Shown here: piece after piece, positions 8,253 through 64,000 of the stretch
Numbering within the stretch: the first letter of the stretch is position 1
Layout of the letters: every line of letters begins with the position of its first letter
NCBI GenBank assembly: GCA_964035575.1
Contig: OZ037835.1
Location: 372,001 to 436,000, forward strand
Source: Rhynchopus sp. YZ270_cl-10
Taxonomy: Eukaryota
Length of the DNA stretch: 64,000 bases
Direction: 5' to 3'
Made by a program: the position numbers and the translations under genes
The notes under the pieces: generated by a model
What the model was told of the DNA's origin: nothing
Seen by the model: only the letters and a program-made list of their open reading frames with translations
Database searches by the model: none

Positions 8253-9652
8253 CTACACACAGCTGGGAGGTCGAATTCGCGAGGCACGAGAGTTTGCTGC
8301 CTCAAGCTCATCAAGCAGCACCTGTGCAACGTCTGTGTGATTTTCCTCCTCCGCATACTGCAACGCAGTGTAGTTCCTTACAGTGTCTCGGTGATTCAGT
8401 TCCACCTCTGGCAAGCCCACAAGATAGCGCACAGTGTCGGTGTGTCCACAACGTGCCGCAAGGATAAGACACGTGCATCCTTCATTGTCTGTGGCACGCA
8501 CTCCCGCACCTGCTTCAACCAACATCTTCACATCGTTAAGTTCTCCTGAAGTGCAAGCAAAGTGCAGAGGCGAACGTCCCTCGTGGTTCTGTGCGTCGAT
8601 GTCTGCACCTGCATCAATCAGCACCTGCACCATGCTTGTGAGATTGTCATCCACAACATAGTACAACGCAGTCTCCGATCGAGTCTCGGAATCAATTCGC
8701 TGATTCACATCAACCTCTGGCAAGCTCAGAAGATAGCGAACAGTCTCGATGTGTTCAGATTCTGCCGCGCACATAAGACACGTGAATCCGTCGTCATCAG
8801 TGGCACTGACTTCCGCACCTGCTCTAACCAACATCTTCACAATGTCAAGTTCTCCATTACAGCATGCAGTGTGCAGAGGTGAAGTTCCCGTGTTGTCCAC
8901 CCCGATGTCTGCACCTGCATCAATCAGCACCTGCACCACTTCTGCATGCTTTTGCACTACCGCTTGGTGTAACGCAGTGTGGTTGTAACAGTTTGTGTGG
9001 TTCATATCCACCTCTGGCAAGCCCACAAGATAGTGCACGTCTCGGCTTCTCCATGTGCTGCCGCATCATAAAGACACGTCCACCCTTCGTTGTCTCCGAC
9101 ACGCACTCCCGCACCTGCTTCAACCAACATCTTCACAACGTCAAGTTCTCCTGAAGCACAAGAAGAGTGCAGAGGCGAACATCCGTCCTCATCTTTTGTC
9201 TGTAAGTCTGCCCCTGCATCAATCAAGACGCGACACACTGCAGGGTCTGACCACATGGCCGGACAGTCATCCTCCTCACCTGCGCTGTGTTTGGACTCGC
9301 GCGGGACAAACGCCACGTTGTTGCAGACGGATTTCCAATGCTGCAAGAGGACCTCCGTGCACGCAACGTGGTCTGCGTGGACACACTCACTCAGCAGCAT
9401 CCCAAAGCCCATCTGCGTTGTCTCGACATACGGAAGAAGCAGTGTGAGGCATTCATCGTGGTTCCCTCTGCATGCCTCGTGCGCAGCATCGAAGGCCACT
9501 TTCTTTCTGTCTGGGTTGAACTTCTCAAGGAACGCCCGCACGGCAGTCGTGTCGCCGTTCCTGGCAGCCTCCACGAAGACCTCGTCTGCAGAAAGCTGTC
9601 TTCTCTTTCGTGGGTTATTGTCCTGCGTGCTGTCTGCGTGTCGCTTCGGCAT
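8253..9652 (-). pseudogene. Ankyrin-repeat protein gene with a single frameshift near 9040
   Basis: Starts MPKRHADS..RKRR at 9652 and has repeated SPLHxAC..G.LDxVKMLVEAGA / TALH motifs. The frame of ORF 9002..9889 must shift into ORF 8253..9038 at GEAET/VHYLVGLPEV. This is a 1-bp loss and could be a sequencing error. Confidence 0.85.
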
Positions 9653-10113
9653 TGTGTGTTTGTGTTGTGTCTTTTGTGTTGGCTTCTTTTTGTGCAGAGG
9701 TTGTGGGTGAGGAAGAACACACATGCAGCACACCCTGTGAGGGAACGGAATGCACGGATACGTCACACACAACCACATGACACCTCCACGAGTCCCCTGT
9801 GCATCACAACCCACCTTCAGGTCAGTGCAATGACTATCTTGGACCCAGGTGGACCCCCACCCATGCAGTTTTACATTCGTGGAGTACATCTGATGTGCGC
9901 TACTCTCGCTTCCTCGCTCATCAGTCGGATGAATGAAAGGAACATTGAAGGTGCAGGGTCATTAAGTCTGCGTGATACAGACTCAGTGAGTCAGGATTCG
10001 ATAGGCAAGAGAGTACACAAGGTATGCAGGATGTGTGCATGAAAATTGCGTCCCTTTCCCCCCCTTCCTTTTAATCTACAAATCCTCTTTTTCTTTCAAA
10101 AAACTCTTCCTTC

Positions 10114-18960: not shown

Positions 18961-20082
18961 TCAATGCCCACACTTACTGCACATTGTGACCCCGCACCCG
19001 TCGTGGCTGCATTTGTACTTCTTCATGCTCCTCGTCTTCTCCAGCTCACAGCAGTCGCACACCCAGGACTCCCCGGCCACACCAAGCGAGACACCCTTCG
19101 CATGCACGCTGTGCACTGCGTCCGCCGCACCGTCACCGTCACCTCCACCACCTGCCTCTCTTTCTCCACCCTCCTCCCTGACACCGTCGTCTCCCTCGGA
19201 TTCGAGATTCAGTGTGGCGATGTGGCTGAGCTCCCCTACAGCACTGTCCTCTGGACAAGACAGAGAAGCGGAACGTTGAACCTGACGGAGGTGGTGTGGG
19301 TTGAGGTGCTCCACAACAAAGCTGCGTGCACGACAACGCCAGAGAGGGATCTGCAGAACGGTAGGGCACCCTGTTACGGTCGCGTTGCGAAGAAGCGGGA
19401 GGTAAGCAGAGGCGAGCTCCGATGTGGCAAAGACGGCCTGGAGAAGAACCTTCTGCGGGTGGTCTTCATCCTGCCCTGGGATGTTCTCTTCCGCACAACA
19501 GAACGACAATGCCGGCACGTCGGCAGACATCAAACACGCGATCGGTTTTGTCACTGCAAGCCTCCCAACCTGTCCACCATTCCCCAAATCATACCAGAAC
19601 ACCGGGAGGTGTGCGTTCAGAAGCCCTGCAGAAAGCGCCTCGTTGTCGAGCACCTCGTCGTTGATGGTCTCCGTCTGGGGTGGAAGCAGGACACGGTTGG
19701 AGAGGGGGGCATTCAGGGCGGTGTGTGTGACGGTGCTGGTCCAGTTCTGAGCCCCGCCGGGGGTGGAGAGGAGGATGCGGTTTTCGAAGTCAAGAGCGTG
19801 GGTGTGGTCTGCAAAGAAGAGGTCGATGTGGACGAACGATGTGACGTCGTCAAAGGCAACGCTGTTGTCGCTGTGGTATGCAAAGCTTTGCTGCGCACTG
19901 CGGAAGATGTGACGTTGGACGGCAGAGCTCGTTGTGTCCGTCACGACGAAGCGTGCATACAGACGCCACGCTGTTGCCTGCGAGGGGTGGCTCTGCACTG
20001 TGCGTGCTGCCTTGCGGGGACCCTCATCACTGTCGGCAGAACGCTTCCCTCCCAACCCAAACACAGTCTGCAGGAAGCTCAT
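18961..20082 (-). CDS. Hypothetical protein (373 aa) with a C-terminal Cys-rich putative zinc-binding motif
   Basis: Long GC-rich ATG ORF on the gene-bearing strand. Ends WVCDCC..KYKCSHDGCGVTMCSKCGH. Confidence 0.7.
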   Translation of the reverse strand: MSFLQTVFGLGGKRSADSDEGPRKAARTVQSHPSQATAWRLYARFVVTDTTSSAVQRHIFRSAQQSFAYHSDNSVAFDDVTSFVHIDLFFADHTHALDFENRILLSTPGGAQNWTSTVTHTALNAPLSNRVLLPPQTETINDEVLDNEALSAGLLNAHLPVFWYDLGNGGQVGRLAVTKPIACLMSADVPALSFCCAEENIPGQDEDHPQKVLLQAVFATSELASAYLPLLRNATVTGCPTVLQIPLWRCRARSFVVEHLNPHHLRQVQRSASLSCPEDSAVGELSHIATLNLESEGDDGVREEGGEREAGGGGDGDGAADAVHSVHAKGVSLGVAGESWVCDCCELEKTRSMKKYKCSHDGCGVTMCSKCGH

Positions 20083-27430: not shown

Positions 27431-29197
27431 CAGGGAGGGCAAAGGTCGAGACTCACACCGACGTCGCAGAATGGGACAAGCAGCTGTCACAGCGGAGCTG
27501 CTCTACGTTCCTTGCCTAGCTTCTCCTGTCGCTCTTTACGAAACACTGCAGCAATGTACGGCTGCTTTCGTGTTGTCGTTCCCACGTGTCGGAGGTGCGT
27601 CAACCACATACTTCTTCAGGTTGCTTTCACGTACTCGACTGGACACAGCACTGCTGCAGCCGGCAAGGTGGATGCTCCTCAACGAAGTGCAGTAGCCAGC
27701 AGGAAGCACACCAAAGTGCGTCACTCTGCTGAGTGGTGATAGGTCGAGTTCTGTGAGGCTGCTGCAGTGGGAAAGAAAGCTTGTACCAATTTTGGTAACA
27801 ATGCTGAGTGGGGATAAGTCTACTACTTTGAGGCTGATGCAGTAGGCAAGAAACCTGTCATTAATATGCGTAACATTGCGAAGTGGTGATAAGTCGACTA
27901 CTGTGAGGCTGGTGCAGTTGTGAAGAAAGTTGGTACCAATGTGAGTAACATTGCGGAGTGGTATTAAGTCCACTGATGTGAGGCTGGTGCAGAAGGCAAG
28001 AAACCAGCCATCAATTTGTGTAACATTATGAAGTGGTGATAAGTCGACTACTGTGAGGCTGACGCAGCTGGAAAGAAAGCTGCTACCAATCCGCGTGATA
28101 CGTGTCAACCCAGACAGGTCGATGCTTGTCAACGCTGAGCAGTCCTGAAGAAACGCAGCGCCGATTTCCGTCACACAGCACACAGCACTCAGATCAAGTG
28201 CTGTTAACGATGTGCTCGCAAGGAACCCATTCGGAATGACAGTCGCAACCTCCGCCTGCAGAAGCAAACACGCAACCTCAGGATCCTCCACAGTCGCCAG
28301 TCTCTCTGCTAATAAACGTTTTTAAAAATAGGATGGAGCACCCCGGTCCGAAAAGGAATGCAGCCACCCCTGGCTTCAGGCTCGCGAACCCAGTATTGCA
28401 GTAACACTGGGTCTCACGGGCCAAAAACCGAACAAAGAAAAGGAAAATGTTTGGGTTCAGCGACAGCGCCAATGGGCTGATGCGACGCTGAACCAACTTA
28501 AAATAAAATAAAAAAATCTTGTATCAACTTGAAAAAGAAAAGCAATGAACAGCAACAGAGCCATTTGGGCTTACGCGTCGCTAAAGTAACTGAAAAACAA
28601 TGTTTTAAAAACAAGAATGTCGTTGACCAAGATTGAAATACACGAAAAAGGTAAAATACTAAGAATTGCCTCATATTCCATGGGCATCGTTTCTGATGTT
28701 GTAGTTTGTCTGCTGAGTGATCACGCGCCCCCCCTGCTAGGGAGGTCTTAGGTTCATGCTTCGGCTTGCACGTAAAAGCTACCATGTCGCGAAGTTAGCG
28801 GTCCTCGTATTCCATGAGGCATTTCTGATGATGTAGTTTGTCTGCTGAGTGATCACGCGCCCCCCCTGCTAGGGAGGTCTTAGGTTCATGCTTCGGCTTG
28901 CACGTAAAGAACTACCATGTCGCCGAAGTTAGCGGTCCTCGTATTCCATGAGGCATTTCTGATGTTGTTTGACTGCTGAGTGATCACGCGCCCCCCCTAC
29001 TAGCCTATACATAGCGTGCGAACGGCTCATTCGCATCATTCGCATCCTGTTCGCATTGGGTATTCGCATCCTGTTCGCATTGGCCAATGCGAACAGGATG
29101 CGAATGACATGCGAATAACATTTATTATGGGGTGGCGACAGGCAAGTTCTCATTTTTTGGTCAATTTCCGCACTACACAGTACACACAGTACACACA

Positions 29198-29644
29198 ATA
29201 TACACAGTATACACATTATACACAGTATACACAGTATACACAGTATACACAGTATACACAGTATACACAGTATACACAGTATACACAGTATACACAGTAT
29301 ACACAGTATACACAGTATACACAGTATACACAGTATACACAGTATACACAGTATACACAGTATACACAGTATACACAGTATACACAGTATACACAGTATA
29401 CACAGTATACACAGTATACACAGTATACACAGTATACACAGTATACACAGTATACACAGTATACACAGTATACACAGTATACACAGTATACACAGTATAC
29501 ACAGTATACACAGTATACACAGTATACACAGTATACACAGTATACACAGTATACACAGTATACACAGTATACACAGTATACACAGTATACACAGTATACA
29601 CAGTATACACAGTATACACAGTATACACAGTATACACAGTATAC
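29198..29644. repeat. (TATACACAG)n minisatellite, about 49 units
   Basis: Read directly from the sequence. Confidence 0.95.
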
Positions 29645-30043
29645 CATAGCTGATAAGCAATAAAGCCTAATAGGATATTGGCCTATTTAAGCCTTATAGA
29701 ATAGGCTAATGAATGGAATAGGCTAATATTTTATTAGCCTATTCCAGTCCTTCCCAGCTACCACTGGTGGTACGGTGGTAGCTGGCTTAACCCGTTAAAC
29801 AAATCCGAAAAATCCAAAATTTAAGGCCAACTCCGTTACAGACACAACACAACTTATTTCTCTTGTGTTTTTCACTGATGAGCGTGAGTGAGGTGTATGT
29901 TACAGCACCAACTGCAGCCTACGTCTAAGATGGCATATAATAGGCTATTAGCCCAATATTAGCCTATTATAAGACATACTGTGGGTGTTATAACGTTATC
30001 GATAACGTTATAACAAGTGTTATTTTGGAATAACGTTATTCAG

Positions 30044-30653
30044 CAGTACAGTACAGTACAGTACAGTACAGTACAGTACAGTACAGTACAGTACAGTACA
30101 GTACAGTACAGTACAGTACAGTACAGTACAGTACAGTACAGTACAGTACAGTACAGTACAGTACAGTACAGTACAGTACAGTACAGTACAGTACAGTACA
30201 GTACAGTACAGTACAGTACAGTACAGTACAGTACAGTACAGTACAGTACAGTACAGTACAGTACAGTACAGTACAGTACAGTACAGTACAGTACAGTACA
30301 GTACAGTACAGTACAGTACAGTACAGTACAGTACAGTACAGTACAGTACAGTACAGTACAGTACAGTACAGTACAGTACAGTACAGTACAGTACAGTACA
30401 GTACAGTACAGTACAGTACAGTACAGTACAGTACAGTACAGTACAGTACAGTACAGTACAGTACAGTACAGTACAGTACAGTACAGTACAGTACAGTACA
30501 GTACAGTACAGTACAGTACAGTACAGTACAGTACAGTACAGTACAGTACAGTACAGTACAGTACAGTACAGTACAGTACAGTACAGTACAGTACAGTACA
30601 GTACAGTACAGTACAGTACAGTACAGTACAGTACAGTACAGTACAGTACAGTA
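30044..30653. repeat. (CAGTA)122 microsatellite
   Basis: Read directly from the sequence. Confidence 0.95.
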
Positions 30654-31099
30654 CCCCTGCTAACGACCCACCCAGAGTGGGACAAAAAAAGCTCATCCCA
30701 AAATATGCCGATCACAAAAAAACACAAAAAACCCCGATCATCCAACAATCACACACCCACAGAATTCACACACTACTATAACATTCGCACTACGTTCGCA
30801 TCATTCGCACTATGTTCGCACTGTGTTCGCATCGTTCGCATCATTCGCACATGCGAATATAGTGCGAATATAGTGCGAATGATGCGAATGATGCGAACGA
30901 CAATGCGAATGAATGCGAACAGGATGCGAATGCATTCGCACATGCGAATATATGCGAATGGTCATTCGCACGCTATGTATGACTAGGGAGGTCTTAGGTT
31001 CATGCTTCGGCTTGCACGTAAAAGCTACCATGTCGCGAAGTTAGCGGTCCTCGTATTCCATGAGGCACTTCAGATGTTGTTCTTCTTTTTCTTCTTGTT

Positions 31100-45663: not shown

Positions 45664-48252
45664 CAGTGTTGTGGCAGTGTCTTTTTTGTGTCTTTTTTGA
45701 TGTGTCTTTTTTGGTCTTTTTTGGTCTTTTTTGGTCTTTTTTGCCAGCATTTTCGGTCTTTTTTGGTCTTTTTTGCCAGCATTTTCGGTCTTTTTTGGTC
45801 TTTTTTGAGCGCACGTTTTTGGGGTTATGGTGCTTATGAGCCCATGGAGCTGAGCTGAAAAGGGATCCCGCAAACATCACAAACACCCACACTTACAGAG
45901 TATCAACACAGACTAATCAGGGGAATAATAATAAAATGCCAGGGAGGAAGAGCTGCTGGAGCCGCGAGGAGTACGTGGAGGTGACGGAGAACGAGGTTGA
46001 CTACCTCGAGTGCAAGGGGGAGGGCTGCGGGTACAGGTTGGCGAAGAACGGCATTTCAGCCACACGGATGAAGAAGCACATCGTGGAGGACTGCCCGAAG
46101 AAGAGTGACAGGGCGAAACAGAGGATCGAAGAGGAAGAAGAGCGGGCGAAAAGATCCCGCTCCGACACGACGGCACCGGCTGAAGCGCCTGCTGCAAAGA
46201 GGGCGAAGCTCGAAAAGAGCCAAACCCGCATCCCCTGCATCCCTGCACCGAACGCGAAGGAGATCGAGGAGATGCATCTCGCCTGGGCGAAGTTCGTGTT
46301 CGCCGCAGGGGTGCCCTTCTCGGTAGTCGATAGTCCACTTTTTATTGAGGCCATGATGGCAACGAGACCAGGGCTAAAAAAAGAACACATACCCAGCCGA
46401 CACGTCATCTCCACAACTTTGCTGGACAAGGTGCACACCACCATCTGTGTTCCGAAGTTTGATAAGCTCGCAAAAAACGAGCACATCTCCCTCCAGTCGG
46501 ACACCTGGAAAAATTCGCGAGCAGAAAAAGTTTTTGCGTGCGCCGGAACAGCAGGGGAGCAGGCAGGATTGATCGTGAACAGCGGGATCTTACAACAAAA
46601 ACAACACAACGCGCAGGAGCTTCTTTCACACCTCACGCAAACACCAGAAAAATTTCAAAAAAAAGCTGTTGCACTCATTTCAGATGGAGATACGACAGCT
46701 ACCAAGGCAAACAAACTCTTCAAAGCCGAACTAAAAAAAAAGAACATTGACGTGCACACCATTGTCTGCGCTGCCCATACTGTACAACGCATGGTGAATG
46801 ACTGTCTCGGGACCAAGAAATCCAAAGGCAACGAAACGGGACAGGAATTCAACTACGTGACAAAGTTGCTGAACAGCGTTGTAGCGTCTCTGAAGAATGT
46901 TGACTACCTCAGGGCTGTTTTGAAGGAAAAACAGACTGAACTGAGTCAGCGAACGAACGCGCCAAAGCTTATGGCGATTACCAGATGGACTACAACGTCA
47001 AAGCTGTTCGACTTCGTCGCGCAATACCGAGAGGCTCTGTTGCTTGTTGCCGATGATGAGGAAGCACTCGCCCGCTGCCCAGATATTCTTAAAGTCTGCA
47101 ACAGCATGCCTCTGATTCGCGCGATTCACAAATTTGTGGAGAAGGCTGGTGTTGTGGTCAACTTGTTGCAGTCGGATTCGTGTAGGATTGGGTTTGTGAT
47201 TCCGCTTCTTGAGCAAGCTCTGAGTGCAGCAAAAGAGACGAAGGCAGCTTTGGCAACGGTGGAAGACAAACAGAAAATGGAGAACGTTATTAAAAAAATC
47301 CAAGTGCGTGTTTCTCGCTACATCACTCACGAGGACGGTGTTTTCTCCGCTGCGACTCTTCTCAACCCATTTTTTCAGGTATACTTCAGCCATATTGATC
47401 CCAACAACAACAACAACAACAATCACACAGGTGTACAAAGAAGCAAAGGACCTGCCAGCAAAACACCCGCTGACCAAACTGGCAGGTTGGGCTCCGTGTG
47501 CAGAGGTGAAGAAGAACGCCTCTGCCTACCTCAAAAAACTGGGGGGCGCGGCACTGTCGGCGTGTCTGATCGAGTTTCGCACTGCATCCGGCATTTTTGC
47601 AAATGACGGGATGTGGGATCTTGCGAAGACCAAGACACCAGAGGAGTGGTGGAGGATATTCTTGCTGGAGGTGCAGAGCGATGGAGGGAGCGAGAAAGAC
47701 GTGAAGCTCTGCAGGATTGGGTACAGAGTGTCGGGGATCCGAGCCTCGAGTGCCGAACTCGAACGGCAATTCAGCACAATGGGCTGGATGTCGCAGTTGC
47801 GGAGGAATCGACTCCTCTCGGCGCGAGTGACGAAGCTGACGCAGATTCACAGTTGCCTCCGCACTGGCAAAGGTGACTCCTGGTTTGAAATCGAGGGTGC
47901 CAAACCAGGAGAACCTGTGATTGACTGCGACGCAGAAGCAGAAGCAGAAGCTCCTGAAGTCGAGGCAGCTCCTGCTGAAGGAAACGACAGCGATGAAGAT
48001 GAAGAGTCGGTTGAGTGGTGAAAGGTTTTCCATTTTTAGTTTTAGTTTTAGTTTCAGAATTTAGATTCAGCTTTAGGAAAACCTGCGATTTGTGTTCAAA
48101 ACGCGTGGAGTGCTTTTTTTTCTGCAAGGTAGAGTCCCTCTATGTCTTTTTTGTGTCTTTTTTGTGTCTTTTATGGTCTTTTTTGGCCTTTTTTGGTCTT
48201 TTATGGTCTTTTTTGGTCTTTTTTGCCAGGACCCTGTCTTTTTACAACACTG
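45664..48252 (+). mobile_element. Apparently autonomous hAT DNA transposon
   Basis: TIR cagtgttgt at 45664 and acaacactg ending at 48252. Subterminal ggtcttttt repeats at both ends and a complete transposase. The flanking 8-mers do not match. Confidence 0.88.
45936..48021 (+). CDS. hAT transposase (677 aa; exons 45936-47378 and 47431-48021; 52-bp GT-AG intron)
   Basis: BED-like finger (W..CKGEGC..HIVEDC), FVFAAGVPFSVVDSP, SDTW, ISDGD, CAAH, TRW, WW and SSAELERQFS..RRNRL. Removing gtatac...cacacag joins ORFs 45936..47606 and 47224..48021 in frame. Confidence 0.92.
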
Positions 48253-52185: not shown

Positions 52186-53253
52186 CTAAGACTTCTCCAG
52201 CTTTTTTATTCTGACGGACCGGATCGCTTCCGCCAGCTTTGCCCCAACCTTCGTGCAGCAGTAGCAGTGTTCGTGGTGACCGAGGCGCTGTCTCATCGGC
52301 CTGCTATGCTTCTGCACACTCTTCTCTTTTTTTTTCGCCTTCTCCATCACGTCGTCATACTCATCAGCGAGAAACGCAGGGATTGTGTGCCCCGATGCAA
52401 TCAGAAGCGCAACGGCGTCGAGCCTGACTGAAGGGTGGATCCAATCTGTTGCGTGGCAGGGAAGAAGCTTGAGGACGATGCCGGGTGCTGGGAGGACCAC
52501 GTCTCGCACGAAGGCCTCATCCTCAAAGAGCTGCGATGGGAAGAAACGGACGATGCGTCTCCTCCGTTGGGCAAGCTTCTGCAGCAACACCTTGTCCTCA
52601 CGCAACGCTGGGCTGAGACAGCGGTACACCTCACGTGGCGACACATCCTTGCAGTCTGCGATCCGCACCGCCAACTCCTGCGTCCCCACCCTCCCCTGCA
52701 AGATACGGTGCAGGTACTTCACCTCTGGCCTCGTCCCCTCCCCAGGAAGCTTGGCCACCACCATTCCCATCACCTCCTGCGTCAGAATCGCGTCCAGGTC
52801 CTCGCCACCAAGGTAGCGTGGTGTGGCTGCGGTCAGGCCCTGGTAGCTGAGCAGCCAGACCAAGGGGTGTGGTGCGTGCCGTACCTCGGGTGGTGCGTTT
52901 CTGAGGGCTTCTGCACGGAGGTGGCGCGGGTGGGTGTTGTTCTCGAGATAGGCGAGCCAGACGGAGGGGTCGTGACGCCAGCGTGGGGGTACAGTGTCTC
53001 CTGCACGGCAGCGGTTGCATGCATAGGTCGCGCTGTAGTCAACGTGGACAGTGTCGCCGTGCTGCAAGGAGGAGGAGCTCACGGCCGTCCCCCTCTCCAC
53101 CTCGGCCTCATTCGGCAGAGTCACTGCGACCTCTTCAGCCGTGCACGACAGCAGCTCCGCACCAGCATCGAACACCACCCCCCACACAGCGCTCTCCCCC
53201 ACTTCCACCGTGCAGGAGGAGAGCAGGTCCGTGGTCTCTACTGTGATTTCCAT
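52186..53253 (-). CDS. Protein with a divergent N-terminal UBL-like domain and helical repeats (DUF4116-like), 355 aa
   Basis: MEITVETTDL..TVEVGESA..SSLQHGDTVHVD fits a ubiquitin-fold pattern. LRNAPPEVR, LSPALREDKVLL and FPSQLFEDEAFV resemble DUF4116-type repeats (by eye). Confidence 0.65.
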   Translation of the reverse strand: MEITVETTDLLSSCTVEVGESAVWGVVFDAGAELLSCTAEEVAVTLPNEAEVERGTAVSSSSLQHGDTVHVDYSATYACNRCRAGDTVPPRWRHDPSVWLAYLENNTHPRHLRAEALRNAPPEVRHAPHPLVWLLSYQGLTAATPRYLGGEDLDAILTQEVMGMVVAKLPGEGTRPEVKYLHRILQGRVGTQELAVRIADCKDVSPREVYRCLSPALREDKVLLQKLAQRRRRIVRFFPSQLFEDEAFVRDVVLPAPGIVLKLLPCHATDWIHPSVRLDAVALLIASGHTIPAFLADEYDDVMEKAKKKEKSVQKHSRPMRQRLGHHEHCYCCTKVGAKLAEAIRSVRIKKLEKS

Positions 53254-54404: not shown

Positions 54405-55445
54405 AAGTTTCACAAAATTTCAATCAAAATCACAACTTTTCACAGCTTTCACAACTTTTCACAACTTTCACACCTTGTCACAAAATTTCAATTAAAAGCA
54501 CAACTTTTCACAAAATTTTCAATTAAAATCACAACTTTTCACAACTTTTCACAAAATTTCACAAAATTTCAATCAAAATCACAACTTTTCACAACTTTTC
54601 ACAGCTTTCACAACTTTTCACAACTTTCACAACTTTTCACAAATTTCAATTAAAATCACAACTTTTCACAATTTTTCACAAAATTTCAACCAAAATCACA
54701 ACTTTTCACAAAATTTCGCAAAATTTCAATCAAAATCACAACTTTGCACAACTTTTCACAACTTTTCACAGCTTTCACAACTTTTCACAATTTTCACAAC
54801 TTTTCACAAAATTTCAACCAAAATCACAACTTTGCACAAAGTTTCGCAAAATTTCAATCAAAATCACAACTTTTCACAACTATTCACAACTTTCACAACT
54901 TTTCACAATTTTCACAACTTTTCACAATTTTCAATCCAAATCACAACTTTTCACAAAATTTCAATCAAAATCACAACTTTTCACAACTTTTCACAGCTTT
55001 CACAACTTTTCACAACTTTCACAACTTTTCACAAATTTCAATTAAAATCACAACTTTTCACAACTTTTCACAATTTTTCAACCAAAATCACAACTTTTCA
55101 CAAAATTTCGCAAAATTTCAATCAAAATCACAACTTTGCACAACTTTTCACAACTTTTCACAGCTTTCACAACTTTTCACAATTTTCACAACTTTTCACA
55201 AAATTTCAACCAAAATCACAACTTTGCACAAAGTTTCGCAAAATTTCAATCAAAATCACAACTTTTCACAACTATTCACAACTTTCACAACTTTTCACAA
55301 TTTTCAATCCAAATCACAACTTTTCACAAAATTTCAATCAAAATCACAACTTTTCACAACTTTTCACAGCTTTCACAACTTTTCACAACTTTCACAACTT
55401 TTCACAAATTTCAATTAAAATCACAACTTTTCACAACTTTTCACA
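54405..55445. repeat. AT-rich degenerate satellite (ttttcacaac / aaatttcaatcaaaatcacaac) with a 392-bp higher-order repeat
   Basis: Read directly. Identical stretches start at 54744 and 55136. Confidence 0.9.
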
Positions 55446-58162
55446 CGGGTTGCCTACGATCGTAGTACGATCGTTTACGATCGTACCAAAAAACGATCGT
55501 AACGATCGTAAAATATCGTACTACGATCAACTACGATCGTACTACGATCGTAAACGATCGTAGTACGATCATTACGATCGTAGTACGATCGTAGTACGTT
55601 TGCCAAACGAAATAACGAATATCGCTTGAAATACCGTTCGATATTCCTTGCATGGTGTGCATGAAGCACACACAAGGTATATCAAACGATAATCAATCAG
55701 ATAAAACGTTACATCATTGGAAAATTGTTGGCACCGCCGCCCTGTCTTCGTATTTATTACGTCGACAGGCCAAACAACGTTGGGCTCAGAAGAAGCAGTG
55801 CTAGACAGTCACTGGGGATCAACATGAGAACCAACTCCCAACAACACAGGCTACCGAAGTAGCAGGTGGGGTGTTGCGGGTGTTTGGGGTGAAAGAAAAT
55901 CGATTTTGGTAAGTTACAGCAGAAAATTCTTAAGTTTGCAATCGCGAGAAGGGTTACACTGCTCTTGCGAGCTGTGAACCGGTAAGGTTGAGAAGGGTGA
56001 CACGGCATACAAGTACAAGTACAAGTAAGACGTACCTTCTGCAAAGGCTGAATTCGCAATTCTAAGGGATATGAATTCAGCCCCCACATGTTTTTTTGAG
56101 ATGATCATTCCATGGTATACTAGGCGTTCCCGAAGAATGAATCATCCCCTCCTCGTTCATGCAAACTCAAGAAAATTCTGAAGTAACTACAACCTGGCGT
56201 GCGGGTACAGATGCATTGCTTTGTTCTTTCCTCAAAGTCATGTGTGATCTCTCGGGTCTGTACTAAAGTCAGTGTTTAGATAAGCATCCACTTGACTCGT
56301 TCTAACAACCGTTGAAATCTAGAACAAAACAACACACTGCCCCTTCTCACACCAAGCCGCCATGCTTCAAGAGCATGCCCTGGGCAAAAATTACTGTGAC
56401 AAAAATTAGTATTCTGGGGGAACGCAATATTTTCTTGTGTCTAGTCCTCCGCAAGCAGAGGACAGACTTTCCGGATCCCGAAGTCGAATTTCTTGCACTA
56501 GCTATGCTCCCTGGGTTAAATGGCTATAGCAGTGACTGACTAAGAGTTTCATAATAATTAGGGTGGTCTATGGGGTGGGTTAATGGAAAAGTTGGTATAT
56601 AAACCCGACTTTTACGATCGCCACCTGGTTTTGAAATAATTGCACCAGCTCTTCCGTGGGCACTGCTTCGCTGTCACGATGAAGGGTCGTCGGTTCGGGT
56701 ACCTGTTAAGAGAAATTGAATGTAAAAGTAGAGACTACAACAAAAAAACAAACAAACAAGAAGCCGCCCCGTACCCCACGTAAAAGTGACATTTTTGTTG
56801 ACAAAAAAAAAAACGTGCCCGTCTAGGTGTCGATAGCATCGCTGTTATCAGGTCACAGCTGTCAAGGTCCGTCCGATGGCTCGCTGACGCGGCATGGGGA
56901 ACTGCACCACTCGATGCCTACGGCCCTAGCATATCAGCTAGAGCATCTAGGTGGTCTTCACCTCCAACCTCCTCTGCTGGCACATCGGAGGGTGACATGA
57001 TCGACGACGTCCTCGCAGCGGGAGATCGGCCTGCCGCGAATGACGTGCCGCCTGCTGAGGGTGACCCTGAGCCCAACCGTATTTTAAAACTAAAGCGTTC
57101 TGTTTCTCCCCCCTCCCGTAAACAGAATCCATCAACACGTTCTTCAAAAAGAAAACGCTCGTCTTCCCCCAGATCATGCGACAAAACTGCCAAAAAACGG
57201 AAGAAATCCGTCATCAATGCCTCCCCCCTCCGCCCCGCCACCCCCATCTGATGATGGCCCGGTGGGTAGTAGTATCAGCGACATCAGTGTGACATCTGCC
57301 ACACAAGAGAGATCATCGCGCTCGTCTGCGGTGACATAAAAATGTTTAGTATAGTGGAGCACACTCTAGGGTGGCTACACTAATACAACCAAGTTTTCAA
57401 AAAAATCTTAACGTACACTCTCTGTTGATTCTAAAACGGGGGAGGGTAAAAAAGGCGTGAAAGGTAAATTGGGGAAGAGGTTGAAAAGTTGGAACGCTTC
57501 CTCACCCCAGATCACACTACAATACAAAGGTTTGGGTTTGAATAGGGTGGGTTCTTCTGACGATGAAACCTACTCCCTTCTAAACAAAAAAAAATAGCGG
57601 ACATGTCGAAAAGGGAGAAAACCGGGGGGTCAAAAAACATACCTTGCACTCGGCCCACTCTCCAGGTACAAAGAACATCACTGCAACCCACTACTACAAT
57701 AGAAAATAACTATTTTTTACCGAACAGAAAGGTCGTTTTATTGATGAGTGTTTTCTGAGTGCACACTCAGTGGGGACAAAATGCAACACTTCAAGGCATG
57801 CAATACTCCAAGGAATTTGCTAAGGAAAAGTCGATATTGTGGGCCCCTGTAGTAGTGCATATAGTTTACCCCCAGATCGTCAAAACACCCGATTTTTGCG
57901 TTTTTTTGCACTTTTTGGTGCCCAAAAACCCAACTCAGGGGTCGAAATTTTCCCGAAAAAAAAATTTTTTTTTTTGAGATTTTTTGATTTTTTGACAAGG
58001 CGCTGGCCCATACAAAATGCACTGGTGGTACAGAAAATGACTGGGGAATTAACTCTAGATGCTCAAAACAGCCCAATTCTTGCTTTTTTTGACTTTTTGG
58101 TCCCAGAAGGGTACCTAGGGTGTAGTGAGCAGGCCTCAAAAACACTTGTGAAAAAAAAAAAT
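55442..58162. mobile_element. Relative of element E in inverted orientation, interrupted by the non-LTR element
   Basis: CAC start followed by tacgatcg repeats. 55650-56720 is the reverse complement of ~16370-17390, 57615-57715 of ~16015-16115, and 57870-57915 of ~14680-14730. The far TIR is not in the window. Confidence 0.7.
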
Positions 58163-58163
58163 G

Positions 58164-58326
58164 GGGGCACACACGTTTTGCTACACACTACCCGTTTTGT
58201 CCTTTGCTTCTCCCCTTTCCCACTTGTTTCTCCCCCTTGTGTGGGTCCTACCTGTCGCCTCCTAGTGGCGTGTCCTGGGCAGAGAGAAGGCCGTTGAGTA
58301 GTTCCTCTCTGGCGAAGTGCAGGTAG
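58164..58326 (+). ncRNA. HDV-like self-cleaving ribozyme at the 5' end of the non-LTR retrotransposon
   Basis: P1 GGGGCAC(58164-70)/GTGTCCT(58270-76); P2 CTACCTGT(58248-55)/GCAGGTAG(58319-26); P3 GCC/GGC with L3 TCCTAGT; P1.1 GG; P4 CAGAGAG..CTCTCTG; J4/2 GCGAA with the candidate catalytic C at 58313. Confidence 0.85.
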
Positions 58327-58386
58327 AGACGTGTTTTCTTTTTGTTTTTCTTGTCCTTTTTGTTTTTATTTTCCTGTTGGTGAAAG

Positions 58387-61300
58387 ATGGGCAGGTGGAG
58401 AGCCCAGATATGGGCTGTGGTGCTCCTGTGTGGAGCCTTGGATGCAGACGGGGGTAGAGTGAGTTGCAGCACCAGCAGCAGCATCAACAACAGCAGCAAC
58501 AGCATCACTCGCGGCGGCAGCAGCTGCAGCAGCATCAACAACAGCAGCTGCAGAACCAACCGCAGCATCAACGGCAGCGGCAGCAGCAACTACAGCAGCT
58601 GCAGCAGCATCAACAACAGCAGCTGCAGAACCAACCGCAGCATCAACGGCAGCGGCAGCAGCAACTCCAGCAGCAGCATCAGTCGCGGCGGCAGCAGGTG
58701 CAACAGCAGCAGTGGCAGCAGCAATAGCGGCGGCAACAGCACCATCACCAACAGCTGCAGCGGCGCCAATCGCGGCGGCAGCAGAGGCAACAGCAACACA
58801 TGTGGAGGCTACAACAGTAACAGCACTAGGAACTGTTATCATAGCAACCCACACCCCCCTCCCCCCCATAATAACCCCAAAAAGAGGCACTTGATGCCCA
58901 ACCACATCAGTAGCTGCAACTGTGATAGCAGCAGAAATGAACCCCTTGGAGTCCTGGGAGGGGCCCCAGTATCACCCCGGCTGCGCAGTGAAGGGGAGGG
59001 AGGGGAAGGTGACGGAGGCAGCAGCAGCAACCACAACGAGGGCAATTGTAGCAGCAACCGTAGCAGCAACAGCAACAGCAGCTACAGACGCGGCAACAGT
59101 TCTGGTGATCCTAGTTGGGGTGGTGGGGGCTGCGGGAAGGGGCCCAGGGGATGGGTAAGCAGGGCAGGAACGTCGGCTCAACCCCTGATACTGTGGCGGC
59201 ACTCCCAAGGGCTGGTGGCCATGATGGACGAGATCCTGCAGTGGTTCCCCGTCACACAGACAATGTTACCGTCATACGAGCAGGTGGCCAGGTGGACCAC
59301 AATTGTGGGGGCTATGTGGGTCTACGCGCTGGTCATGGCTGTGATGGTGTCAGGGCTGCTCTTCCCACCGAGGCGGCCCAGACGGTACCGCAGGCACTGG
59401 AGGAGACGCAGCCGGCGCTTCTTTCTCATTTACAAGAGGAGTGCTGAGAGGTGGCAGAGCCGTAAGCAGGGGACAGTCCGAATGGAGCCAGGGGCGATGC
59501 GTGGGGGGGCAGATGACGGCAATGTACTGGGCAAGGCGGAGGTCGATGCGCTGCTAGAACGCAATGGAGGGAAGCGCATCGCCAACGACATGCAAGGGAA
59601 CTGCATGTACGTCTCCCTCATGGGCAAGATGGGCAGTTACCTGGACGTAGCCAACGAACGCAAAGAGCTGGCCAGGAGTGCGTTGACGACCGAGAAGAAG
59701 CGCGGCCTCAGAAGACACTTCGACACGGAGGCTGAATTCTCCACGTGGGTGGCAGGGGTGGAAGGAGACGCTTGGGGTGACCTGCTGACGCTACACCACA
59801 TAGCCATGACATGGTCGTTGACGATCCTGGTTGTGCAGCCGGGGGCGTGCCCCATGGTGGTGGTGAACAGGGAACGCCAGTCGAAGAAGAAGACACAAAA
59901 GAAGAAGCCACGGGAGGTGAGGGTGATATCGCTGATTGGGGAACACTACGAGCAGGTGCAGATGGACCCGGCACAGGCTTCCGCACTAGCCAATGCCGCC
60001 CCCATTGCAGAGCTCATCCCATCCCGGCTGGCGGTGTCTCCGATTCCCGGCATGACGAAGGACGCGACTTCTCCACTGGAAGGGGACTCCCCCCTCCTCT
60101 ACTGCCCAGTACCGTGTTGCCAGGGAAGCCGGTTCCACCGGGACATCCCCTTATCCGGTCCAGGGCTACGCGCACATATCGCTGGCCACCTAGCAGAGGG
60201 AGACCACATTCCGCACGACACTCTGCGGAAGTTCGGCCTGGGTCAATGTGGTGTGTGTGACGGCATCCGAGCAGCGAAGAACGAGACGTGCCTGCAATGC
60301 TCGAGGCTGGTACAGGCGGTGCCACGCCCGTCACCCACCATCCGCACACCGGCGCAGGAAGTGGACGACCGCGACATGCCGGACTGGTATGAGATCGCGG
60401 CAGCACCCATCCCGACCCACGACACCGTGCCCAAAGCGATTGACCGGGCGGCGGCGGTGGAGTTCGCGAAGGTGTTGGAAGACGTAGCTGGCTGCAACGA
60501 CGAGAACAGCTGGAAGAGGCTTTGCATGTTCGCAAAACTCGTGTTGTCCAGAAAACGGGGAGGTGCGAACATCAGCAAGAAGGTGGTGGCACAGCGGGAG
60601 GCGGAGGTGACGGAGTGGTCGCAGGGGGAAATTGCGGCGATGTGGTCTGCAGCGACTCGATCTCTTCCTGGGCGTGGGCCGGGCAAGGAGCGGAAGGAGC
60701 CGACGAAGGAGGAGAGGGAGAAAGCGTGTGTCACTGAAGTCCGGAACGGTAGGCTCGCAGCAGGGATGAGTCGTCTCCACAAAGGCGGTACTGCGCCCGT
60801 TACGATAGAGACGACAGCGAAGCTGAGGGCGAAGCACCCGGAGGAGGCCCCACAGGTGGCAAACACCACTGCGCACGTTGCCCTCGAACCCCTGAAGCCC
60901 ATCGACGCCCTGAAGGCCATCAAGAGCATGTCGAAGGGATCATCACCAGGCCCATTCGGTCTCAGGGGCGACCATTTGAAGGAATGGATGGTCAAACACC
61001 CTGACCTCAACCTCCTCCCCCTCATGACGCTAGTCCTGGACCTATTGCGAAGAGGCCAGGCCCCACCTGAGGCAGCAGAATTTCTTGCCGGAGCCACGCT
61101 CGTCGCCCTGAAGAAAGGTGAAACGGATGTCCGCCCCATATCTGCAGGCAACACACTTCGTCGGGTGGTGAGCAAGATTGAAGTGGGATCAGTCCGGACG
61201 CAGGCGCGGGACAAGCTTCTCCCTGGTCGCCAAGTAGGGGTGGCGGTGGATGGTGGACTGGAGGCTGCTACAATGGTGGTGGCGGATTACGTGAAACGCA

Positions 61301-64000
61301 ACCTAGGGAAGAACAAGGTGATAGTCCTCGTGGACTATGAAAACGCTTTCAACAGCATCCACCGGTCCACCTTCCTCGCGGCTACTCGAAAGTACCTCCC
61401 CACCATCTCCCCATGGATCGAGTGGTGTTACGGCAGGCCGACTTCCCTCCTGCACGGCGACGACCTCATCCAGTCGCAACGAGGGGCACAGCAGGGTGAC
61501 CCGGCAGGACCGCTTCTTTTCTCCCTAGGGATCAAGGAACTGACGGAGGAGGTGAAGGCGATGCCGGGGATTGATGCCAGCTTGTGGTACCTGGACGACG
61601 GGACCATCATGGGCCCACCCGAAGCAGTGGGACGGGCGTTGAAGCTGGTGCAGGAGCGGAGCCTGGCGATGGGTCTGCGGGTGAAGCTGGCGAAATGCGA
61701 GGTGATTGCGCTAGGACAGCAGACGCCACGTGACCTAGCACAGGCGGGCTTGCCAGTGTGTGCCCATGGATACCCGGACGACGGTGCGTGCGCAGCATGT
61801 GAGGGCAAGGCCATGAAGGTGCAGTACGGTGGGTTCGCGTTCTTGGGGGCGCCTATCGGTGACGACGAGTTTTGCGAGTCCTACATGGACAAGCAGGTGA
61901 AGGAGTTCGCTGAGCAGCTCCGCCTCCTCAAGGACCTCAAGGACGTACAGGTCGGGTTGACGCTTCTTCGCCAGTGTGAAGGCTTCGCGAGGATGGTGTT
62001 TTACATGCGTGCTATCGGACATGCGTGTACTCATCAGTACCTCAAGGAGTACGACAAGGAGGTCGACGCTGCGCTCGCCTCGTTGATGGGTGACACGGAA
62101 GGGCTTCTCCCAGAGATGGCACGTCGTCAGGCAGCACTTCCCTGCAGAGCTGGAGGCATGGGAGTCCGTCGCATCCGTGACCACTGGACGGCCGCGGCGA
62201 TGGGGTCGCGGAGCGGGCTACATGAGTTGTGTAAGGTGCTAGACCCGGAGTTCCAATGGGATGCGGAAGGGTGGAAAGAGACTGCGACGGAGCACAACCG
62301 ACATGTAGCAGAAGCAGACAAAGTAGACCCTCTGGTGAGACCAGCCACCCCTGTGCGACAAAGGGAGCTATCGGCAGGAATCCTCGAAGAACAGCTGCGG
62401 CGACTGTACCTGGAGGGTGATGCGGCTGATCGGGCACGGATGAACTCCCTCTCCCTTCCGCATGCAGGCGCGTGGCTCATGGCGCCCCCAACGTGGGAAC
62501 ATCACATCCCCCCGGAGCAGTTCCAGGCGGTCTGCAGGATCCGCATGCACCTACCTCTCTTCGCAGACGGGGTCCAGTGCAGGCAGTGTGGGCAGGCCAT
62601 GGACGCGAGAGGCGACCACATTTTCGCCTGCAAGATGGGAGGACACCGCATTCTGAGGCACAACGCAGTACGCGACTTCGTCTACTCCGTTGCGAACGAA
62701 GCAGGTCTAGGCCCCACTCTCGAACCCCAACACCTGGTACTGGGGAACAAGAAGCCAGCAGACCTCTTCCTGTCCACGGGGGTGGGCGAGTCGCGGGGGC
62801 GGGCCATTGACGTGACAGTGTGGACCCCGACGTGCAAGTCGATGGTGCAGGGTGCTGCGGTGGCCAAGGGGTACACGGCAACGAAGGCGGAGGCGGCGAA
62901 GAGGGGGAAGCACCAGGCCGCCTGCATTGCTGCACGGATCACCTTCACTCCATTCGCGTTGGAGACGACGGGAGGGTTCGGGCCTGCGGCATCCACAATC
63001 TGGACGCAAATGCTACGCTTCGCAGCCGACAGGAAGCTGGGCAGCAAGCAGGAGATGTCGCGTCGTTGGGCGTGGGGGATGGGCACTACGCTGCAGCGGA
63101 TGATTGGCAAGTCAGCGATGGACAGAGGGTGTCTGCGCGGGGACACAGCAGGCGCGCTCAGGGAGAGGATAGAGGTGGACGTCGCGCCGTTGCCAGGTGA
63201 GGACGAACACTTCCGACTTCCTCCCGACCACCTGCCTCCCATAGATTATGCACCAGACGACGGTCTATTCGATATCGACGTGTCCGCACTGAACCCCGAA
63301 GAGCCTGCGGAGCACCCTGACCCTCCACCTTGCCCTAACCCGGCGGATGGGAGCGCAACTCGACCACAGACGTTCCACGAAGAACTTTGGAACACCCTCG
63401 GGATGACAGTCCCAACGGTAACAGTGCCGTTCACTGTCGGGGACTGCGCCTTTGATGCAGTCAGGTGGCTGCTACGGGAGTGGAGGGACATCTCCTCTGG
63501 GGACCTGCGGAAGCTTGCAGTGACGAGGGTCAAGCAGGACAGGGACCTGGCGAACTCGGCGGAACCGACTTTCGGGTCGTGGGTGCGCTGGATGAGCGTG
63601 GAGGGGAGTCCGGACACTCGTTCGTGGGCGGACGTGACGGCGTTGGCTGGTCTCTCCCGTGCATTACAGATAGTTGTGGCGGTGGTGCGGGCGGACAGCA
63701 AGACGACATTCCTGAGACCGGCGGCAGCCCCACGAGGTGCGATAGCCCTGCTACACGAAGGACCGGTGGGCGCCGGGCACTACTCCCCTCTAGTGGTAGG
63801 TGCAGTGGCGAGGGGGATGATGATGAAGATGGAGCCACAAATCCCCCCTGTGGAGATGCAGTGCATGAACACCGGAACGCTGTCGTACATGGGTGACAGG
63901 CAGGATAGAGACGGAGAGATGGTGACGTGCGAGGGCTGCGCTGCGGTATTCGAGGACAGCATTGCACATTGGTTCTGTTCGGCGTGCCCACTCAAGTGGT
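58387..64000 (+). CDS. Retrotransposon polyprotein, more than 1870 aa, 3'-incomplete: signal peptide/TM - OTU - Zn fingers - reverse transcriptase - CCHC/RLE endonuclease - OTU - Zn finger
   Basis: Frame +1 is open from ATG 58387 to the window end (hand translation; no frame +1 ORF in the track closes here). RT motifs: SPGPFGL, VRPISAG, DYENAFNSI, QQGDP (61489), YLDD (61588), FLGAPIG. RLE motifs: CRQC..H..C (62578-62631), RHN, KPAD, IDVTV, FALETTGG. OTU1: GNCMY (C at 59602)..WGD..HY (59944). OTU2: GDCAF (63439)..WAD..HY (63778). Confidence 0.93.
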   Translation, partial: MGRWRAQIWAVVLLCGALDADGGRVSCSTSSSINNSSNSITRGGSSCSSINNSSCRTNRSINGSGSSNYSSCSSINNSSCRTNRSINGSGSSNSSSSISRGGSRCNSSSGSSNSGGNSTITNSCSGANRGGSRGNSNTCGGYNSNSTRNCYHSNPHPPPPHNNPKKRHLMPNHISSCNCDSSRNEPLGVLGGAPVSPRLRSEGEGGEGDGGSSSNHNEGNCSSNRSSNSNSSYRRGNSSGDPSWGGGGCGKGPRGWVSRAGTSAQPLILWRHSQGLVAMMDEILQWFPVTQTMLPSYEQVARWTTIVGAMWVYALVMAVMVSGLLFPPRRPRRYRRHWRRRSRRFFLIYKRSAERWQSRKQGTVRMEPGAMRGGADDGNVLGKAEVDALLERNGGKRIANDMQGNCMYVSLMGKMGSYLDVANERKELARSALTTEKKRGLRRHFDTEAEFSTWVAGVEGDAWGDLLTLHHIAMTWSLTILVVQPGACPMVVVNRERQSKKKTQKKKPREVRVISLIGEHYEQVQMDPAQASALANAAPIAELIPSRLAVSPIPGMTKDATSPLEGDSPLLYCPVPCCQGSRFHRDIPLSGPGLRAHIAGHLAEGDHIPHDTLRKFGLGQCGVCDGIRAAKNETCLQCSRLVQAVPRPSPTIRTPAQEVDDRDMPDWYEIAAAPIPTHDTVPKAIDRAAAVEFAKVLEDVAGCNDENSWKRLCMFAKLVLSRKRGGANISKKVVAQREAEVTEWSQGEIAAMWSAATRSLPGRGPGKERKEPTKEEREKACVTEVRNGRLAAGMSRLHKGGTAPVTIETTAKLRAKHPEEAPQVANTTAHVALEPLKPIDALKAIKSMSKGSSPGPFGLRGDHLKEWMVKHPDLNLLPLMTLVLDLLRRGQAPPEAAEFLAGATLVALKKGETDVRPISAGNTLRRVVSKIEVGSVRTQARDKLLPGRQVGVAVDGGLEAATMVVADYVKRNLGKNKVIVLVDYENAFNSIHRSTFLAATRKYLPTISPWIEWCYGRPTSLLHGDDLIQSQRGAQQGDPAGPLLFSLGIKELTEEVKAMPGIDASLWYLDDGTIMGPPEAVGRALKLVQERSLAMGLRVKLAKCEVIALGQQTPRDLAQAGLPVCAHGYPDDGACAACEGKAMKVQYGGFAFLGAPIGDDEFCESYMDKQVKEFAEQLRLLKDLKDVQVGLTLLRQCEGFARMVFYMRAIGHACTHQYLKEYDKEVDAALASLMGDTEGLLPEMARRQAALPCRAGGMGVRRIRDHWTAAAMGSRSGLHELCKVLDPEFQWDAEGWKETATEHNRHVAEADKVDPLVRPATPVRQRELSAGILEEQLRRLYLEGDAADRARMNSLSLPHAGAWLMAPPTWEHHIPPEQFQAVCRIRMHLPLFADGVQCRQCGQAMDARGDHIFACKMGGHRILRHNAVRDFVYSVANEAGLGPTLEPQHLVLGNKKPADLFLSTGVGESRGRAIDVTVWTPTCKSMVQGAAVAKGYTATKAEAAKRGKHQAACIAARITFTPFALETTGGFGPAASTIWTQMLRFAADRKLGSKQEMSRRWAWGMGTTLQRMIGKSAMDRGCLRGDTAGALRERIEVDVAPLPGEDEHFRLPPDHLPPIDYAPDDGLFDIDVSALNPEEPAEHPDPPPCPNPADGSATRPQTFHEELWNTLGMTVPTVTVPFTVGDCAFDAVRWLLREWRDISSGDLRKLAVTRVKQDRDLANSAEPTFGSWVRWMSVEGSPDTRSWADVTALAGLSRALQIVVAVVRADSKTTFLRPAAAPRGAIALLHEGPVGAGHYSPLVVGAVARGMMMKMEPQIPPVEMQCMNTGTLSYMGDRQDRDGEMVTCEGCAAVFEDSIAHWFCSACPLKW

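Follow-up and report, generated by a model that had tools for sequence, protein, structure and literature searches.

How does the reverse transcriptase of a retrotransposon come to be made with a beginning that resembles a membrane protein? The question is raised by the last part of a stretch of 64,000 nucleotides (nt) from Rhynchopus sp. YZ270_cl-10 (contig OZ037835.1, positions 372,001 to 436,000), hereafter called the window. Judged by its sequence features, the element located there is a CRE/SLACS-like retrotransposon lacking long terminal repeats (a non-LTR element) and has at its 5' end a ribozyme like that of hepatitis delta virus (HDV). An earlier annotation (the original prediction) had described its polyprotein as starting like a type-I membrane protein, with the reverse transcriptase (RT) tethered to a membrane and possibly released by an adjacent OTU protease. 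The evidence leans slightly towards a disposable leader that would be inserted into a membrane and then removed at a Gly-Gly (GG) site, with an OTU protease of the element itself making the cut. Within this reading, cleavage at the GG site appears probable, membrane insertion of the leader is favoured with somewhat less confidence, and a cleaved signal peptide followed by a glycosylated lumenal part in the window family is possible but rather doubtful.

The polyprotein is encoded on the forward strand in one frame without any stop from 58384 to the window end, in agreement with the claim of a frame open from ATG 58387 through the RT. Counted from this ATG, which is the first one 3' of the ribozyme, 1871 amino acids (aa) lie in the window, and the full polyprotein reaches about 2136 aa when a protein of the same family (P0023) is counted in. 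The domains were found in frame in the order leader, OTU, zinc fingers, RT, restriction-like endonuclease and second OTU-like domain; the succession of OTU, RT and endonuclease was thereby confirmed. The GG site (aa 373-374) and the second OTU-like domain after the endonuclease were missing from the original prediction. The leader and the region of the GG site comprise the following features.

58387..58446 (+), signal-peptide-like start, aa 1-20, with a basic n-region and an 11-aa hydrophobic core
58462..58833 (+), AGC/AAC microsatellite translated into Ser and Asn, containing a 75-nt duplication that keeps the frame (58518-58682)
59011..59106 (+), second Ser/Asn tract, from the sequence
59302..59364 (+), predicted transmembrane (TM) helix IVGAMWVYALVMAVMVSGLLF, aa 306-326, Kyte-Doolittle (KD) value 2.24
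59371..59418 (+), Arg-rich stretch, aa 329-344, with 11 Lys/Arg after the helix and 1 before
59485..59508 (+), EPGAMRGG, di-glycine motif like that of ubiquitin, predicted to be cleaved after G374, in 6/7 families
59596..59949 (+), OTU-like cysteine protease 1, C406/H520, Pfam PF02338 at E 1e-3, below the cut-off

Relatives of the polyprotein were drawn from a representative search (best 150 of 16,013 matches). Among the matches listed, seven families reach the leader boundary and fall into four lineages, namely the window family with P0031 (RT identity 77%), P0236 with P0269 (78%), P0084 with P0110 (76%) and, as the fourth, P0253 of Diplonema papillatum. Between lineages the RT identity is 44-56%. 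The leader ends with the pattern P-x-[AET]-[LM]-x-GG in six of the seven families and in all four lineages, in the variants MRGG (window), LAGG, LRGG, LRGG, MQGG and LAGG; P0110 lacks the motif. The pattern gave 16 matches in 277,300 fetched residues, every one at the boundary between leader and body, a result that demonstrates specificity but not an independent prediction, the motif being derived from these same sequences. Alignable conservation begins at the GG site, where identity between the window protein and its sister climbs from 12-30% to about 50%. The OTU cysteine follows 32-39 residues after the GG in five families, and in P0253 a zinc finger is located in between.

The first OTU-like domain of the window protein matches PF02338 with 20 bits, under the cut-off of 23.3, while the match of the sister (30.1 bits, E 8e-7) lies above it. 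Catalytic Cys and His were found in all seven families, and the assignment to OTU is carried by these residues together with the above-cut-off match of the sister. The best ESM Atlas matches of the domain are also OTU, with scores below 0.9. Cys and His motifs of the second OTU-like domain are present in four of the five families having the C-terminus. The fifth, D. papillatum (P0253, KAJ9439003.1), displays a UCH/USP-type deubiquitinase domain at aa 2678-2949, 3' of the endonuclease, so that a deubiquitinase seems to be retained at the position after the endonuclease, whichever of the two folds it has. A profile of the first OTU domain matched the C-terminal domains of relatives weakly (E 4e-4) and did not match that of the window protein itself.

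Ubiquitin itself ends in LRGG. Viral OTU and papain-like proteases cleave polyproteins at RLIGG and LXGG (PMC5695851; sources are given here by their PubMed Central identifiers and cited for the excerpts available). By analogy, the GG site likely mimics the C-terminus of ubiquitin and represents the type of site cut by viral OTU proteases. In the wider group, 2A-like motifs were detected in 7 of 64 more distant relatives and leader removal therefore recurs there.

Evidence for membrane insertion comes in the first place from the window protein. The hydrophobic stretch of 21 aa originally pointed out at 59302-59364, IVGAMWVYALVMAVMVSGLLF, proved to be the most hydrophobic 21-mer of the whole protein. 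When the residues of the leader were shuffled 3000 times, its hydrophobicity was never reached; among random translations of 374 codons free of stops, made with the local base composition, 0.12% reached it. The stretch is the one predicted TM helix (a single scan window under the threshold given below) and has its positive charges on the C-terminal side, where the Arg-rich stretch was likewise recovered. The latter may serve as a stop-transfer signal, and possibly in RNA binding or nuclear targeting too. Codon use in aa 262-360 resembles that of the catalytic body (GC content at third codon positions 0.79, shuffle p 0.009).

Across the families, TM-like 19-mers (scale sum ≤ 3; P0096 is represented by P0253, a longer member of its cluster) were identified in six of six families with a long leader, and in none of the 11,588 residues downstream of the boundary. 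Other relatives show them in 3 of 64 cases with at least 150 aa upstream, and in 3 of 23 with more than 370 aa upstream (hand count), many of these gene calls being possibly short. When compared with the composition of their own leaders, the best helices of the six families were reached in 0, 19, 69, 224, 535 and 856 of 3000 shuffles. Hydrophobic clustering beyond composition was obtained with a Fisher p of 9e-4 over four families, the window and P0110 being left out. A basic cluster follows a helix in four of the six families (11, 11, 9 and 8 Lys/Arg). The P0236 family has a Ser/Asn tract, a helix and poly-Arg, and P0084, P0110 and P0253 have several helices each.

The same stretches could act differently in a leader that is cut at the GG site. 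Hydrophobic and basic segments might stall ribosomes or mark the uncut precursor for degradation, by which RT levels would be limited, and the proteases would rescue the part cut in time. Such a role would fit with the lack of sequence or topology conservation of the leader, with the presence of two deubiquitinase-type domains per element and with the observation that 2A-like peptides in retrotransposons often reduce protein abundance and co-occur with OTU or Josephin domains (PMC13405545). It is nevertheless considered unlikely, since the helix of the window consists of 21 residues without any charge and has positive-inside charges, as in P0236 and P0084, and since the helices are located 50-170 aa upstream of the GG and not at the position of a 2A peptide.

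Several points weigh against a membrane leader released at the GG site, in addition to the circular derivation of the GG pattern and its lack in P0110. The TM calls are simple scale sums and not DeepTMHMM predictions, three families (those with 224, 535 and 856 of 3000 shuffles) are not significant alone, and the score combining TM segment and basic cluster was devised after the sequences had been seen. In the sister, the helix is weaker and the charges are reversed (10 Lys/Arg before, 3 after). Between its pyrimidine-like start and the TM segment, the P0236 family lacks a Met at which a signal peptide could begin. Leaders are mostly unalignable between families, and their charge (4-6 Asp/Glu and 11-15 Lys/Arg per 100 residues) is like that of translated G-rich random DNA. 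The relatives are known as predicted proteins only, in which gene callers may have bridged breaks, and P0229 and P0235 are clearly mis-joined. As for the type-I ectodomain, no codon adaptation was found in the Ser/Asn tract.

A conserved type-I topology was thus not found in the relatives. In the window protein, the single predicted helix with its positive charges on the C-terminal side agrees with a type-I layout, but this layout is not general, as seen in P0236, the sister and D. papillatum. Likewise, the signal-like start was recognised with its basic n-region and 11-aa core, but this core is short (best 11-mer KD 2.65, best 19-mer only 1.16) and a signal peptide is not general in the relatives. 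Of the features that the original prediction had put up for comparison with related families, the open leader and the TM-like segments recur; a signal peptide is not general. As topology, sequons and alignment are not carried over, the shared feature, at the level of sequence, is a hydrophobic, basic and fast-changing leader ending in GG, and not a type-I glycoprotein that is conserved. Selection would act on the character of the leader (open frame, hydrophobic segments, basic cluster) and not on its sequence. The proposal of a tethered RT released by the adjacent protease retains its core, a hydrophobic basic leader in four lineages with a candidate site beside the first OTU domain. A candidate alignment of the window and sister leaders was rejected (score 33 against a shuffle mean of 35; 5 of 300 with other bounds).

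The many N-x-S/T sequons mentioned in the original prediction are indeed present, 19 of them in the window leader. The predicted Ser/Asn-rich region of about 280 aa was found at about aa 26-149 and 209-240, the remainder not being of this kind. In another reading, the leader corresponds to a product of ORF1/Gag or envelope type (ORF, open reading frame) which would stay in membranes after cleavage, bind element RNA via its Arg cluster and package ribonucleoprotein particles (RNPs) into vesicles moving between cells. Three families with 19, 11 and 9 sequons and the Arg-rich stretch adjoining TM helices are in line with it, and membrane roles have been proposed for the esterase ORF1s of other non-LTR clades (PMC5408684). 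The leaders of P0084, P0110 and P0096 are devoid of sequons, no conserved ectodomain and no Pfam or ESM Atlas family of the leader were found, and the fast turnover of its sequence is unlike a capsid or a fusogen, which makes such a product very improbable. Packaging in vesicles for cell-to-cell movement, as suggested originally, is supported by nothing here.

For the leader, neither a Pfam family nor a usable ESM Atlas match was obtained; with its first 40 aa as query, none of 9 candidates was a match at E 5. Metagenome scans gave 0 matches to the signal-region pattern and, with the protein query, 0 confirmed among 219 pattern matches. A search for shorter proteins yielded only 5 fragments, all of the same family. 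AlphaFold models of aa 259-548 were of low confidence (pLDDT 44 and 50), the OTU fold was not readable from them, and they produced nothing at E 0.001 in Foldseek and only generic helical hairpins (Z < 7) in VIA-align. A sequence search against solved structures likewise returned nothing useful.

The 5' region of the element displays two features ahead of the ATG.

58164..58326 (+), HDV-like ribozyme marking the 5' end of the element, all named helices fully paired
58333..58386 (+), polypyrimidine tract, 85% pyrimidine over 47 nt, with the first AG after it lying immediately 5' of the ATG

The ribozyme forms the nested double pseudoknot of the HDV consensus architecture, after which its helices are named: P1 (58164-70/58270-76), P1.1 (58261-62/58277-78), P2 (58248-55/58319-26), P3 (58257-59/58267-69) and P4 (58280-86/58305-11), with a G-U at the predicted cleavage site, the GCGAAG junction at 58312-17 and the C in J4/2. 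Contig pieces from three of four runs start at 58164, which is consistent with the predicted self-cleavage there, although these are not RNA ends. The indels listed for the ribozyme in related copies lie in the J1/2 linker. An Rfam scan of the window gave no match at gathering score, the ribozyme included, and Rfam matches by E-value over the CAG tract were judged compositional. The energy fold of the ribozyme region had a z of 1.75, the pseudoknot being outside what such a fold models.

The first AG after the pyrimidine tract is at 58385-86, and the AG-ATG is retained in a related contig. Pyrimidine tract and AG are a plausible spliced-leader acceptor, as spliced-leader trans-splicing is common to Euglenozoa (PMC10161547), or they may be part of a cap-independent start. 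Translation of L1Tc proceeds without trans-splicing (PMC3185411) and cap-independent translation starts have been proposed for R2 (PMC12203849).

Part of the stretch is present in 10 of the 15 listed runs. A contig of 5855 nt differs from 58305-64000 by one substitution and one 75-nt unit absent in frame, but it may be the window's own source and is not independent. A second family with deeper coverage has the ribozyme and the 5' region in common with the window. Its contig shows 14 gap letters, all of them before the ATG and none in 58387-58455; the coding changes listed (G2C, R5S, I8L, V11M) are conservative, and the next 30 letters keep the Ser/Asn frame. From depth and frame, we infer that this contig belongs to protein family P0003/P0031. 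A third variant aligns gap-free over 58384-58444. One loose end is run X5, which may have a 4-nt deletion in this 5' coding region. Between families the 5' DNA is much more alike than the OTU protein (about 50%), and therefore exchange or a constraint at the RNA level can explain this similarity equally well as selection on the peptide.

These data bear on the possibility that the leader is mostly untranslated 5' tandem-repeat sequence, with the start at ATG 59221, which would leave the helix as a signal-anchor, or near 59482-59497, without an anchor. The Ser/Asn microsatellite is open in two of three frames, in line with the earlier caution that such a tract easily stays open; neither this tract nor aa 150-208 displays codon bias. 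Tandem repeats are concentrated 5' of the RT ORF in FoTeR/MoTeR and are internal in CRE (PMC12857005, PMC12278014), and the strong resemblance of the 5' DNA among families could stem from a constraint on the RNA or from exchange. Outside the microsatellite, the frame is open beyond chance: when bases were shuffled segment by segment, the probability of staying open was 0.33, 0.115 and 0.01, and none of 5000 base shuffles left the leader open over its full length. Each of the four lineages has long open leaders, a cleavage-type motif at the very start of a protein would remove little, and the polypyrimidine-AG points at 58387. Altogether, an untranslated leader is regarded as quite improbable.

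The element is immediately preceded by an A-run at 58145-58163 within a high-depth host repeat. Related copies are likewise preceded by an A-run, and other contigs run from the A-run into a T-rich stretch. These flanks suggest a targeting of A-tracts. At this 5' junction, located in a high-copy repeat, no spliced-leader gene was seen, and the window contains no Rfam family; the 3' junction of the element lies beyond the window.

The catalytic body contains the following features.

58387..63999 (+), polyprotein in a single ORF, truncated at the end of the window
60103..60300 (+), zinc-finger-like Cys/His region, aa 573-638, with Cys/His columns kept in six relatives
61111..61731 (+), RT, YLDD at aa 1068, PF00078 at E 1e-15
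62578..62811 (+), CCHC knuckle and restriction-like endonuclease (RHN...E...KPAD...D), by comparison of motifs with the SLACS/CRE pattern (PMC12857005)
63436..63789 (+), second OTU-like domain (VGDCAFDA...GHYSP), by Cys and His motifs
63928..63999 (+), C-terminal Cys cluster, beginning only, cut by the window end

RT and, at the C-terminus, a restriction-like endonuclease are encoded in one ORF that has no apurinic/apyrimidinic endonuclease, which corresponds to the domain content of CRE/SLACS elements. Every residue of the endonuclease pattern (C-C-H-C, RHD/N, E, R/KPD, D/E; PMC12857005) is present, with spacers of 2, 9, 3, 8, 19, 9 and 15, three of which fall one residue outside the ranges of that source. 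The closest relative of the RT among solved structures is an R2 protein (E 1e-8). A quick tree, made from 61 of 62 rows (P0017 dropped) and without reference CRE1, SLACS, CZAR or MoTeR sequences, places the first two lineages within one group of 11 rows (SH-aLRT 91). In this tree the element groups (SH-aLRT 91) with a protein of D. papillatum whose SLACS-like annotation is a similarity label. A HERO clade label was dropped after the comparison of endonuclease motifs and the identification of named relatives.

Among the matches listed, the nearest named relatives are the 'Retrotransposable element SLACS 132 kDa protein' entries of the marine flagellate D. papillatum (KAJ9439003.1 / KAJ9436461.1). 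Going by these relatives, a diplonemid or some other euglenozoan is the probable host. The SLACS-like protein of this species shares 45% RT identity and also has a hydrophobic leader, the GG site and an OTU domain. With the CRE/SLACS/CZAR clade, fungal MoTeR/FoTeR included, the element has in common the single ORF, the zinc fingers, the RT, the C-terminal restriction-like endonuclease and 5' repeat regions; the TM leader, the GG site and the two protease domains are absent from the clade descriptions given in the excerpts of PMC12278014 and PMC12857005. Two FoTeR proteins have SignalP hits without TM helix (PMC12857005).

Proteases of ubiquitin or SUMO type fused to a non-LTR RT are known from NeSL and Utopia-1_TSP, with an N-terminal Ulp1-like domain (PMC4640811), and from the Symbiodinium and Haematococcus ORF2p carrying OTU or Josephin (PMC13405545). 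These elements belong to other clades, and the cited excerpts describe no membrane leader or self-cleavage site for them. OTU and Ulp1 domains also occur on DNA transposons (PMC2836005, PMC6431247). An N-terminal leader separated from the catalytic part is likewise found in 2A-bearing non-LTR elements (L1Tc/ingi, CR1, L2; PMC4981915), for which signal-like 2A peptides are known (PMC4981915), and L1Tc shares the 5' HDV-like ribozyme (PMC3185411). In 2A elements the separation occurs by ribosome skipping at NPG-P, whereas here a candidate protease site is present, with the helix at least 50 aa upstream.

Hydrophobic leaders are also present in some more distant relatives, namely P0010, P0114, P0116 and P0219. 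Two of these, P0010 and P0219, start in a signal-like manner; P0010 has in addition 2A-like motifs and two TM-like windows, and in P0219 an LPGG-A motif precedes the zinc fingers. PDZ, Prim-Pol, MLLE, Ulp1 and RNase H were observed as accessory domains across P0007, P0111, P0155, P0116, P0127, P0205 and P0163.

Other sequences of the window include an intact tyrosine recombinase ORF at 2518-3534 (+) (PF00589, E 3e-9), which, given its eukaryotic setting, we take to be possibly a Crypton-like transposon. A hAT-like transposase at 45936-48021 (+), in two overlapping frames (DUF659, hAT dimerisation domain), is interrupted near an AAC run by a frameshift or intron. A dispersed cluster at 5609-44749 (-) comprises about nine leucine-rich-repeat genes that are related to one another, contain repeat units of 75 nt and are preceded by C/A-rich sequences that are almost identical; ankyrin-repeat ORFs lie at 8253-9958. 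Long simple arrays occupy 29174-30654 and 54430-55598 (TACACAGTA x52, CAGTA x122 and a 392-nt higher-order satellite). A 350-nt sequence occurs twice, inverted and with 82% identity (56401-56748 and 16338-16639), without Rfam match. ORFs of 373 and 355 aa at 18964-20082 (-) and 52189-53253 (-) have no Pfam match.

In the preferred reading of a leader inserted into a membrane and cut by the OTU protease, the ribozyme would free the element RNA at 58164 and translation would begin at or near ATG 58387. The leader would direct the ribosome to the endoplasmic reticulum (ER), where the helix would halt the transfer and the catalytic part would stay cytosolic. While tethered at the ER or the nuclear envelope, the new protein may bind the element RNA, after which cleavage by the OTU domain behind MRGG would free the OTU-ZnF-RT-endonuclease-OTU protein (ZnF, zinc finger) for target-primed reverse transcription. 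Replicases of RNA viruses with OTU or papain-like proteases are anchored in membranes. In the case of arterivirus nsp2, tymovirus PRO and coronavirus PLpro, as predicted for the element, a polyprotein is cleaved at a ubiquitin-like GG by a deubiquitinase-type protease of its own (PMC5695851). There is about an even chance that this diplonemid non-LTR lineage arrived at the strategy of RNA-virus replicases, in the form of a membrane-anchored RNP assembly and a release by OTU at a ubiquitin mimic. The analogy is functional only, with no homology claimed, and the element differs from these viruses in being a genomic retroelement. In its boldest and very doubtful form, the glycosylated leader would also route RNPs into vesicles between cells.

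Among the top listings of open-licence papers, to the exclusion of Repbase Reports and subscription journals, no non-LTR element was found described as having a TM leader together with a GG site like that of ubiquitin. For the role of Ulp1, OTU and USP domains on many transposons, the excerpt of PMC2836005 offers guesses only, such as the tuning of host DNA repair. The present lineage supplies a concrete candidate for a protease substrate within the element itself. As D. papillatum carries a member of it and is described as a model diplonemid (PMC10161547), a host exists for testing. If the anchor is real, a non-LTR RT would be synthesised at a membrane and set free by proteolysis, with consequences for the question of how RNPs come by their RNA and enter the nucleus.

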